From the IMG/VR virus record IMGVR_UViG_3300045988_003641, positions 25,067 to 89,066 of that record: DNA of 64,000 nucleotides; one strand, written 5' to 3'. The notes under the pieces were generated by a model that was not told where the DNA came from, did no database searches, and saw only the letters and a list, made by a program, of their open reading frames with translations. The first letter of the stretch is position 1, and each line of letters opens with the position of its first letter. Both the position numbers and the translations under genes were made by a program. Below are positions 26,995-28,807 of this stretch, piece after piece. This DNA is from a virus. Lineage: Duplodnaviria > Heunggongvirae > Uroviricota > Caudoviricetes.

Positions 26995-27368
26995 CCATCC
27001 TTCCATACCACACCTCACCCAACCATACCATGCCTTACCAGACCGCACCTTGCCTCATTAAAAGACCCTCTTAAAAGACCTTTTAAAAAGGTAAGTCTCA
27101 TTTTAATGTAGCTGAGACTAACTACCCGCACCGAACCTCACCTGACCTGACCGCGCCATACCTAACCGCGCCTTACCACACCTCACTTAAAAACCCTATG
27201 AGATACTCTATCGAATATAATTTAAAGACTCTTAAGTGATGTAATCGAATTTTTATGTAGCTCCGATTAACTACCCGCACTTTACCAAACCTCACCCTAC
27301 CCTACCAGACCTTACCTAACCGCGCCGTACCTCATTAAAAGACCCTCTTAAAGACCTTTTAAAAAGGA
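26995..27368. repeat. structured intergenic repeat array A (3 modules)
   Basis: three ~60-bp C/A-rich tracts (26995-27057, 27128-27187, 27277-27334) alternating with a TTAAAAGACC-containing motif (27057-27091, 27187-27241, 27335-27368) and hairpins (27094-27119, 27243-27268) each followed by AACTACCC. Confidence 0.85.
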
Positions 27369-27383
27369 GCCTCCGAAGAGGCT
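27358..27383 (-). terminator. rho-independent terminator of two-gene cassette
   Basis: minus strand AGCCTC-TTCG-GAGGCT then CCTTTTT. Confidence 0.6.
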
Positions 27384-27394
27384 ACCTAGTCAAC

Positions 27395-27835
27395 TTAGAA
27401 AGGTTTTCTACGTTGCTTGTTAATGTTAGCTTTCATAGCAGCTAAATGGTTTTGCTGTTCAATTAGTCGTGAACGTTCTTGATGGCTAAGTACCATAGTG
27501 TTCACATTCTCAATCGCTTGAGTGGCTTGCTTTAAAGCACGACCAATCTTACCAGACATTTTACGTTTTGCAATAGTTGCTTGATGCTTAGGTTCAACCA
27601 CACGATAACCAACACCCATTGAAGCAACCAGATAAATCTTCTCTTCTTTAAGAAGCTTCTCAATAAACTTCTCAAGTCGATTTAAGCGTGTAAGTGCGTA
27701 AGCTTTCATTTCATCTTCGTACTTAACAATGTCACCTTGATAAGTTGGCTTCACAATACCTAAGAAGGTATCCATCTCAGAGTGTGATACAGTGTCACCG
27801 TAACTAAACTTTGCTGCTAATGCTTTTGTATTCAT
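27395..27835 (-). CDS. hypothetical protein (cassette gene 2)
   Basis: 146 aa, basic C-terminus; no motif recognised. Confidence 0.4.
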   Translation of the reverse strand: MNTKALAAKFSYGDTVSHSEMDTFLGIVKPTYQGDIVKYEDEMKAYALTRLNRLEKFIEKLLKEEKIYLVASMGVGYRVVEPKHQATIAKRKMSGKIGRALKQATQAIENVNTMVLSHQERSRLIEQQNHLAAMKANINKQRRKPF

Positions 27836-27837
27836 AA

Positions 27838-28440
27838 TTAAACGTTACCTTCTGAAATAACTTCTACAGAAAAACGACCAAAGCGTGGACGCCAATCACC
27901 TACACCACAAAGGTTACCAGCATTTTCCAGAACCATCAGAAGTTCCTCTCTGGTGATTTGCTCTTCATCGAACATCAAACCAAACTCTACAGACCAGTCA
28001 CGGAAGATTGGACGGTAACTCATAACTCGTGCTGTACCAATCTTAACAGACTTAGCATAGATAAAGTCTGGATTCTTAGCAAGTTCTTGTGGGTTTGCTG
28101 GACAGTTCTTGATAGTCATTGGGAAGACTACATCTGTCAGCATAATGGCTCGGTCAATTACCTTACCAAGTTTGTTGAGTTTTGCACCAGACTTGATACA
28201 AGCCTCAATCATCTCACCGTTCATAACAAAACCTAACTGCTCATCGTAGTAACAGGAAGTTACTAGTTGGCTTTCTGCTAAGAGCGCATAGTCTTCGTCA
28301 GTCTTTTTACGTTTACTGGACAGAGACTTGTGATATTTTGTCAGAGGGTTTAATGGGTCTGACAACGTATCGTTATGGCTCAAGAAAGGACGAGTACCAG
28401 TGATTTTGATATTTAACAGTTTCATAGCATTTAGCTCCAC
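27838..28440 (-). CDS. hypothetical protein (cassette gene 1)
   Basis: 200 aa; glycine-rich C-terminal motif [14 protein letters not shown]; no confident family assignment. Confidence 0.4.
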
Positions 28441-28520
28441 ACTTTAGTTGATTGTTAAGTTGTTTGTAAAGAACCCTCAACAGAAGACTCTTTAGAAACT
28501 TGGTAGATTTTTAACGTGGA

Positions 28521-28807
28521 TACTACCATCCACCCATACCGTGCCACACCACACCGGACCGTACCATGCCCAACCCTACTACACCAGACCTTATTAAAAG
28601 ACCCTCTCCAAAGACCTTTTAAAAAGGTAAGTCTCATTTTAATGTAGCTGAGACTAACTACCCATACATTACCGCACCATATTATACCCTACCCCACCAT
28701 ACTTCACTGCACCGAGCCACGCATTACATCACTTAAAAAACCTTTTCAAAGACTCTTAAGTGATGCTGGTGAGTACCCGTTGGTTTATGCTGCTCAGTAT
28801 ACTCACC
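28521..28807. repeat. structured intergenic repeat array B (2 modules)
   Basis: C/A-rich tracts 28521-28590 and 28664-28731; TTAAAAGACC motif 28591-28627 and hairpin 28628-28663 near-identical to array A copy 27057-27127; second hairpin 28768-28807. Confidence 0.85.

Follow-up and report, generated by a model that had tools for sequence, protein, structure and literature searches.

The stretch of DNA analyzed here (the window) comprises 64,000 nucleotides (nt), positions 25,067 to 89,066 of the IMG/VR record IMGVR_UViG_3300045988_003641, and belongs to a Felix O1-like phage (Felixounavirus) that is 92-94% identical to the E. coli phages dune, heid, and REP5. Downstream of its DNA ligase gene lies a two-gene cassette on the minus strand, consisting of vipr (27838-28425), which encodes a 195-aa RAMP/Cas7-like protein, and directly downstream of it vap1 (27395-27835), which encodes a 146-aa VIPR accessory protein. 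In the GenBank records of dune, heid, and REP5, these genes are annotated as 'hypothetical protein' and the repeats beside them at most as 'repeat_region'. On either side of the cassette lies an unusually long intergenic region (28441-28829 on one side, 26879-27394 on the other), and these two regions contain three short hairpins. This study concerns these hairpins and their relation to VIPR, a phage-encoded CRISPR-like system of RNA-guided DNA binding described in two 2026 preprints (bioRxiv 10.64898/2026.04.26.720920 and 10.64898/2026.04.26.720927).

An earlier note on this DNA had placed hairpins with a kept loop and compensatory stem changes at 27094-27119, 28630-28655, and 27243-27268, and all three are present there. 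On the plus strand, the first two read AGTCTCA-TTTTAATGTAGC-TGAGACT and the variant copy at 27243-27268 reads AATCGAA-TTTTTATGTAGC-TCCGATT. The sense strand of all genes in the hairpin region is the minus strand, on which the variant copy reads AATCGGA-GCTACATAAAAA-TTCGATT and is fully paired; the corresponding minus-strand RNAs are AGUCUCA-GCUACAUUAAAA-UGAGACU (twice) and AAUCGGA-GCUACAUAAAAA-UUCGAUU (once). The single stem mismatch that had been reported for the variant exists on the plus strand (A.C), whereas on the sense strand it is a G.U wobble. The two loop versions differ at one of 12 positions. Between the two stem versions of the window, three of the seven stem pairs are changed on both sides. 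Each of the three hairpins is preceded on the minus strand by GGGUAGUU, and the extended motif GGTAGTT-N8-CTACATWAAAA occurs three times in the window versus 0.02 times expected (100 shuffles), while the 12-nt loop alone, with at most one mismatch, was found five times in the window versus 1.3 expected, which is not significant. The hairpin fold of the minus-strand RNAs has a z of about -2.2.

The hairpin makes up only a small fraction of a guide RNA (vrRNA) of about 100 nt, whose (GGYNN)n body was not linked to it in the earlier note. Five (GGYNN)10-14 tracts are found in the two intergenic regions, all on the minus strand; the GGYNN pattern has 38 matches versus 0.07 expected, with none elsewhere in the 64 kb. 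Three of these tracts continue directly into GGGUAGUU and a reported hairpin, and the remaining two are followed by a different sequence of 34 nt. Upstream of vipr the units are arranged in the order A5 (class A tail) and A4 (class Tup), and downstream of vap1 in the order A3 (class B), A2 (class A), and A1 (class Tdn). The A5 tract (28664-28733) contains 14 pentamers with partly degenerate GGY after a conserved AAGTGA leader and carries guide dinucleotides. The others consist of 11 GGYNN units (A4, 28536-28590), 11 units (A3, 27277-27331), an AGTGA leader unit plus 11 units (A2, 27128-27187), and 10 units (A1, 27005-27054), again on the minus strand. Across 21 related loci, 69 unique arrays were obtained, in which GGY is kept and NN is variable, with a median of 12 units (range 7-20).

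The tails that follow the tracts share a layout of 34 nt, GG-S1a(4)-L1(2)-S2a(7)-L2(1)-S1b(4)-L3(7, A-rich)-S2b(7), in which S1a/S1b and S2a/S2b together make up an H-type pseudoknot. The stem of the earlier note is helix S2 of this pseudoknot, and its 'conserved loop' is a junction base (G, A, or U) followed by the 3' strand of S1 and the A-rich linker. The loop CUAC is complementary to, and pairs with, the GUAG just upstream of the stem, and the linker AUUAAAA crosses the resulting helix S1, so that the idea of a free-standing hairpin whose loop is read by a protein has to be replaced by that of a second helix. In the A5 tail (class A, 28630-28663, minus strand), which contains the hairpin at 28630-28655 and is identical to the tails of the downstream vrRNAs of phage SUSP1, the parts are GG (28663-28662), S1a GUAG (28661-28658), L1 UU, S2a AGUCUCA (28655-28649), L2 G, S1b CUAC (28647-28644), L3 AUUAAAA (28643-28637), and S2b UGAGACU (28636-28630). 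The A2 tail (27094-27127, minus strand), also of class A, contains the hairpin at 27094-27119. The class B tail of A3 (27243-27276, minus strand) consists of GGGUAGUU (27276-27269), S2a AAUCGGA (27268-27262), G, CUAC, AUAAAAA, and S2b UUCGAUU (27249-27243). In the two remaining minus-strand tails, both helices have other sequences: S1 GUGG (28533-28530)/CCAC (28519-28516) and S2 GGUAG (28527-28523)/CUACC (28506-28502) in the class Tup tail of A4 (28502-28535), and S1 AAGG (27002-26999)/CCUU (26988-26985) and S2 GGCAG (26996-26992)/CUGCC (26975-26971) in the class Tdn tail of A1 (26971-27004).

To compare these tails between phages, 89 copies from the 21 loci were reduced to 15 distinct sequences in four classes and aligned without gaps over 32 nt. 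Class A has S1 GUAG/CUAC and S2 AGUCUCA/UGAGACU; class B has the same S1 and S2 AAUCGGA/UUCGAUU, and also AAUCGGA/UCCGAUU and AAUCGAA/UUCGAUU; class Tup has S1 GUGG/CCAC and S2 GGUAG/CUACC; and class Tdn has S1 AAGG/CCUU and S2 GGCAG/CUGCC. In this alignment 92.1% of the cells are paired in the pseudoknot, versus 70.6% in shuffled and 28-41% in slid controls. Nine of the 11 pseudoknot base pairs change on both sides, and the covariation score was reached by none of the 500 shuffles. Two claims of the earlier note are correct in this respect: the element is a nucleic-acid structure under selection, and the stem is kept by compensatory changes.

These data also bear on whether the hairpin could be a plain stem-loop operator, in which a single-stranded 12-nt loop is read base-specifically by Vipr or Vap1 and the stem only presents the loop. 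Such an operator would be in line with a loop that is nearly invariant over 41 copies while the stem is recoded, with the co-purification of SUSP1 vrRNAs with Vipr, and with the simple hairpin given by RNAfold, which cannot predict pseudoknots. We consider it unlikely, however, because the loop CUAC is complementary to an invariant GUAG two bases upstream of the stem, and helix S1 covaries as well: Tup and Tdn replace both segments and yet pair (GUGG/CCAC and AAGG/CCUU), three of the four S1 pairs being changed on both sides. Moreover, loop position 1 varies freely (G, A, U), as would be expected of a junction base, and cryo-electron microscopy (cryo-EM) revealed a pseudoknot at the vrRNA 3' end. 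Protein may contact the loop bases all the same, and the operator reading may thus be partly true alongside the pseudoknot.

Neutral leftovers of a recent duplication, with stem differences due to chance and pairing due to coincidence, would fit with the presence of only two stem versions in the window and with the origin of all copies from closely related phages. This is scarcely credible in view of the alignment, in which each of the six substitutions that distinguish class A from class B is at a paired position and preserves pairing, the 12-nt loop differs at one position only (in some class B copies), the 8-nt 5' flank is without change, and two further classes recode both helices. In addition, stem pair 6 of class B appears across loci as G.U, G-C, or A-U. 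Since G.U pairs exist on the minus strand only and this pair runs through all three forms, the element is an RNA of the minus strand and not DNA, and the 'RNA or DNA hairpin' of the earlier note is to be corrected accordingly. A DNA cruciform or single-strand hairpin through which the cassette is moved by recombination or transposition, in the manner of GTAG-tagged repetitive extragenic palindromes (REPs) that a transposase recognizes or of T4-type stem-loop cassettes, is very improbable for related reasons: pairing is complete on one strand only (G.U versus A.C), the variant copy folds better as minus-strand than as plus-strand RNA (-5.6 versus -2.9 kcal/mol), the two-gene cassette contains no transposase or recombinase, and strand-specific tail RNA and Vipr binding have already been demonstrated for SUSP1. 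What speaks for such a site is that GTAG precedes the hairpin, that the cassette occupies differing genomic contexts in distant phages (e.g., after the head protease in locus L144), and that it is flanked in the window by 140-nt direct repeats (83% identical), although these repeats are accounted for by guide-RNA units arranged in tandem, whose NN is hypervariable.

A further possibility is that the hairpins are terminators or RNase processing signals that solely create the 3' ends of small RNAs. A U-run (UACCUUUUU) 4 nt past the class A hairpin and the position of the tails at the 3' ends of the ~100-nt SUSP1 RNAs would agree with this, and a separate canonical terminator is found directly after the tail of a related satellite vrRNA (see below). 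The last observation cuts both ways, as it means that the satellite needs a separate terminator after its own tail. Our terminator scan called none of the three hairpins; what it called was a terminator-like hairpin with a U-run (AGCCTC-TTCG-GAGGCT, 27368-27383, minus strand) directly after vap1, and intrinsic termination was rejected as an explanation of the three hairpins. Besides, the stems are AU-rich and of 7 bp with 12-nt loops, no downstream U-run is present in classes B, Tup, and Tdn, and the tail stays in the mature ribonucleoprotein (RNP) according to cryo-EM. A role restricted to 3'-end formation is therefore quite unlikely, and a secondary role of the tail in 3'-end protection is possible.

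The hairpins are accounted for by the VIPR system. In the two preprints, Vipr is described as a minimal RAMP protein and the vrRNA as a run of 9-16 YNNGG repeats with an invariable tail at the 3' end, in which the SUSP1 clade has a pseudoknot; double-stranded DNA is read by the NN dinucleotides, one base being skipped per repeat, the natural targets are competing mobile elements, and vap1 enhances protection (10.64898/2026.04.26.720920 and 10.64898/2026.04.26.720927). The SUSP1 vrRNAs are ~100 nt long, carry the tails at their 3' ends, and co-purify with Vipr, and RNA expression, RNP formation, filament structure, DNA binding, and repression are all established for SUSP1 (same preprints). The cryo-EM structure contains one Vipr protomer per repeat, and the 3' pseudoknot caps the RNA of the complex (10.64898/2026.04.26.720927). 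Much of this description applies to the window: Vipr is a small protein (~20 kDa) with a minimal RAMP/Cas7 fold (RRM core, G-loop, and thumb), the residues that recognize GGY in SUSP1 (H17, R138, D177, W178, R179, E71, M72, and C173) are all present at the same positions, GGYNN tracts lie on the gene strand and end in a 3' tail pseudoknot, vap1 is adjacent, and targets with a 1-nt skip exist. Neither cassette protein had a match in Pfam. We thus conclude with high confidence that the window encodes a type II VIPR system orthologous to that of SUSP1, with five vrRNAs, and that the three hairpins are helix S2 in the 3' tails of three of these. The partnership with an adjacent cassette protein that the earlier note had envisaged is borne out via the co-purification of SUSP1 vrRNAs with Vipr, and its interpretation as a whole is partly supported.

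The window and SUSP1 share the gene order (ligase, intergenic region, 195-aa gene, 146-aa gene, intergenic region), 97% identity in Vipr and 99% in Vap1, the same kind of GGYNN guides, and identical or near-identical class A, Tup, and Tdn tails; among the four SUSP1 vrRNAs, the class A tail occurs twice (identical to the reported hairpin) and Tup and Tdn occur once each. The same satellite family is targeted (baseplate and tape-measure homologs) by the same 1-nt skip rule. Unlike SUSP1, which is a Suspvirus, the window phage is a Felixounavirus, and it has five vrRNAs (two upstream and three downstream) rather than four (one plus three), with entirely different guide dinucleotides. It also carries a class B tail with a recoded S2, which SUSP1 lacks and other clade members possess. 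Given near-identical proteins and identical tails in a described system, the hairpins are already explained by VIPR and do not represent a new class of element.

The targets of the guides were approached through the tails. A search with the Tup tail matched 153 of 5,426 complete E. coli genomes, and the matches lie in an integrated element of ~12 kb that encodes a serine recombinase and is inserted in yecE or between tonB and yciI. This element matches the satellite described in the VIPR preprint; its baseplate gene is 68% identical to window 13375-14139 and its tape-measure gene 27% identical to window 11072-13348. The class A tail plus linker had no BLAST match in the 5,426 E. coli genomes, and it was the Tup tail alone that led to the satellites. 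We then scanned nine satellite loci with 67 unique arrays, dropping the quasi-invariant last unit and requiring an NN match of at least 90%. With a skip of 1 nt, 35 of the 67 arrays reached this threshold, versus none with skips of 0, 2, or 3 nt. Among the window guides, A2 matches the satellite serine-recombinase gene at 20/20 positions (locus L230, 2769-2797), A5 the tape-measure gene at 23/24, A1 an intergenic site at 17/18 (locus L227, 8315), and A4 the tape-measure gene at 17/20. When the last unit was kept, the full arrays matched at 20/22 (A2), 23/26 (A5), and 18/20 (A1), values that were reached by none of 100-200 unit shuffles. No self-targeting was found within the window, and exact 1-nt-skip scans of IMG/VR with guides A2 and A3 gave no match.

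The anatomy, fold class, covariation, and target complementarity come from the present analysis, and the rest of the mechanism is taken from the preprints. By analogy with SUSP1, one Vipr protomer per repeat would bind and flip out GGY, and the NN dinucleotides would be exposed for the reading of double-stranded DNA, one base being passed over in each repeat. The tail would serve as a constant handle by which an RNA is recognizable as a Vipr guide and which sets the filament's end and register; if so, selection would keep its fold while both stems can be recoded. The system as a whole would repress an E. coli phage satellite that parasitizes the family to which this phage belongs.

Several points weigh against this interpretation or limit its reach. 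Guide A3, which belongs to the variant-hairpin vrRNA, has no target in the nine satellite loci (16/20, the background level). The covariation rests on only four classes, i.e., about three independent recoding events and a few point variants, and the cell counts overstate the number of such events; one class A copy has CCAC for CUAC, which breaks one S1 pair. The pseudoknot seen by cryo-EM is that of SUSP1 vrRNA1 (class Tup), and the same fold for classes A and B would follow from the alignment. The ends of the vrRNAs in the window phage and the production of the five RNAs, presumably from their own promoters or by processing, are read from the DNA sequence, and vrRNA expression and a Vipr RNP that represses its target would carry over from SUSP1. 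Finally, since a terminator separates vap1 from vrRNAs A3 to A1, the transcription of these three would need read-through or their own, possibly unrecognized, promoters.

With regard to transcription signals, a putative strong sigma-70-type promoter (TTGACA-16-TATACT, 28796-28823, minus strand; 11 of 12 consensus positions) is located just past the ligase stop codon and would transcribe vrRNAs A5 and A4 and then vipr and vap1. No sigma-70 consensus was found by the promoter scan in front of the three downstream vrRNAs. The terminator at 27368-27383 that separates these from vap1 is of the canonical kind, with a UUCG tetraloop and a U-run. Conserved linkers extend from a tail to the next tract (window 27055-27093, 27332-27367, and 28591-28629). 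They consist of a palindrome (UA)CCUUUUUAAAAGG and a following segment UCUUUnnGAGGGUCUUUUAAURA, in which GGUCUUU is directly repeated and UCUUUAA resembles boxA; linkers of a second type form a long hairpin (CACUUAAGAG...UUUUUAAGUG). The linkers may act as promoters, processing sites, or 5' handles.

The pentamer directly ahead of the tail hardly varies, reading GGTAT in 44 and NGTAT in 54 of the 69 unique arrays (counted in L001, L002, L122-L138, and L225; in the window at 27005-27009, 27128-27132, 28536-28540, and 28664-28668). It is also the unit that fails to match natural targets, as illustrated by A2, which goes from 20/22 to 20/20 without it, and it appears to be part of the constant tail and not of the guide. 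As for the distribution of tail classes, A and B tails are internal in the 21 loci, and each detected Tup or Tdn tail is the last of its own region, Tup being the last before vipr and Tdn the last before the next gene. This split between internal (A/B) and terminal (Tup/Tdn) tails could encode position-specific biogenesis signals. A Felixounavirus locus of this kind (92% DNA and 99% Vipr protein identity) is also present in GenBank GU169904.1, the 147-kb record of Staphylococcus phage SA1, which suggests a chimeric or contaminated assembly.

The satellite has a vrRNA of its own. In locus L226 (14865-15075, chromosome of E. coli EC12), and also in L227-L234, a single vrRNA with 13-15 GGYNN units and a class Tup tail is present, with its own promoter (TTGACG-17-TATAAT) and an intrinsic terminator directly after the tail. 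The sequence CTGATGAG after this tail was considered as a hammerhead core and rejected, being the start of that ordinary terminator and without a match in Rfam. No homolog of vipr or vap1 was found in the satellite by tblastn, and its vrRNA would therefore depend on the Vipr of a helper phage. By the rule of a 1-nt skip, this satellite guide matches a host REP, and not the phage or another satellite. At the cmoB-torZ REP it matches at 21-23 of 26 positions, with unit shuffles reaching at most 19, and at REP sites of Escherichia whittamii and an Enterobacteriaceae isolate it matches at 26/26. The match sites are L226 19528-19565, L227 17807, L229 and L232 16512, L235 5082-5119, and L236 1979-2016. 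The matched 42-nt sequence occurs in every one of the 5,426 E. coli genomes, with a median of at least 38 places per genome. This match between the satellite vrRNA and the REP is not mentioned in the text of the preprint. One conceivable, though rather doubtful, explanation is that the tail pseudoknot is a transferable licence tag, such that the phage's Vipr loads any RNA that bears a tail of the helper type and the satellite hijacks Vipr in this way. If this were true, the satellite might counter VIPR with a decoy that titrates Vipr away to hundreds of host sites where it is harmless, or alternatively it might use Vipr to act on the host chromosome.

More distant relatives of the cassette were also detected. 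Vipr homologs with only 37-49% identity are flanked by GGYNN arrays in 66 of 68 unrelated viral contigs; the arrays in these loci are on the gene strand, L184 alone also having arrays on the opposite strand, and the tracts often form 2-10 tandem units about 115 nt apart. In two distant VIPR loci (L141 2946-4503 and L144 2885-4318), whose Vipr is 37-40% identical, tracts are found before vipr, between both genes, and after the second gene. The conserved triplet in L141 is nearly always GGC, not GGT. The tracts end in GGTTTTTT right before the next ribosome-binding site, and the spacers between them contain differing hairpins followed by a common TCTTTAT motif. In L144, the cassette directly follows a head maturation protease and has thus moved from one genomic context to another. 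BLASTP of the window Vap1 against the second gene of L141 and L144 revealed no similarity, a word-based homolog search with Vap1 retrieved near-identical proteins only, and a degenerate IMG/VR scan for the hairpin motif gave mostly chance matches.

A number of other ideas about the repeats and hairpins were dropped, since the RAMP fold and the preprints explain the anatomy: a TRAP-like ring protein on the GGU-NN repeats, two-tetrad G-quadruplexes, an R-loop replication origin beside the genes for ligase and polymerase, loading of Rho on the complementary, C-rich strand, antitermination at a boxB-boxA-boxC site of the lambda nut or rrn kind (with GGTCTTTTAA as the boxA-like part), and GTAG-tagged REP/RAYT hairpins. 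CRISPR-Cas was rejected as well, the locus being a two-gene cassette with pentamers and a pseudoknot tail in place of spacers separated by 25-40-nt repeats. No Rfam 15 family matched anywhere in the window at gathering thresholds; under permissive settings, 26800-28900 had four matches (E 2.2-9.9), whose scores lay far under the gathering scores and none of which touches the hairpins, tails, or tracts. A literature search on Felix O1 repeats found nothing.

VIPR represents a newly described kind of RNA-based DNA recognition, with a discontinuous guide of two bases per pentamer and a minimal Cas7-like protein, and it is proposed to predate CRISPR (10.64898/2026.04.26.720920 and 10.64898/2026.04.26.720927). 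One of its defining parts was spotted in the earlier note from sequence alone, and the published targeting rule (1-nt skip) was independently confirmed. Compared with the crRNA/Cas7 complexes of class 1 CRISPR, a RAMP-fold protein likewise polymerizes along a guide RNA, a constant structured end flanks a variable guide, and guide units occur in tandem. Unlike class 1 CRISPR, the VIPR system is phage-encoded, has a period of 5 nt with three flipped bases (versus 6 nt with one), reads a discontinuous guide made of NN only, and contains no repeat-spacer array, Cas6, Cas5, Cas1, or Cas2; its constant part is a 3' pseudoknot, whereas that of CRISPR is a repeat hairpin or an 8-nt 5' handle.

Two further systems invite comparison. 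In the trp leader RNA, 11 G/UAG triplets at distances of 2-3 nt are wrapped round the 11-mer ring of TRAP. By analogy only, VIPR likewise has about 11-12 repeats of a conserved triplet and 2-nt spacer, each bound by a single protein subunit; unlike TRAP, it relies on a RAMP fold, a helical filament rather than a ring, informative spacers, and a DNA target. Classical H-type pseudoknots with an A-rich loop 3 are known from the phage T4 gene 32 leader and from frameshift pseudoknots. The tail resembles them in its order of strands (S1a-S2a-S1b-S2b), in its L1 of 1-2 nt, and in an A-rich L3 opposite a short S1, whereas it has no sequence relationship to them and belongs to no Rfam family, and it caps a ribonucleoprotein filament instead of acting in translational control.

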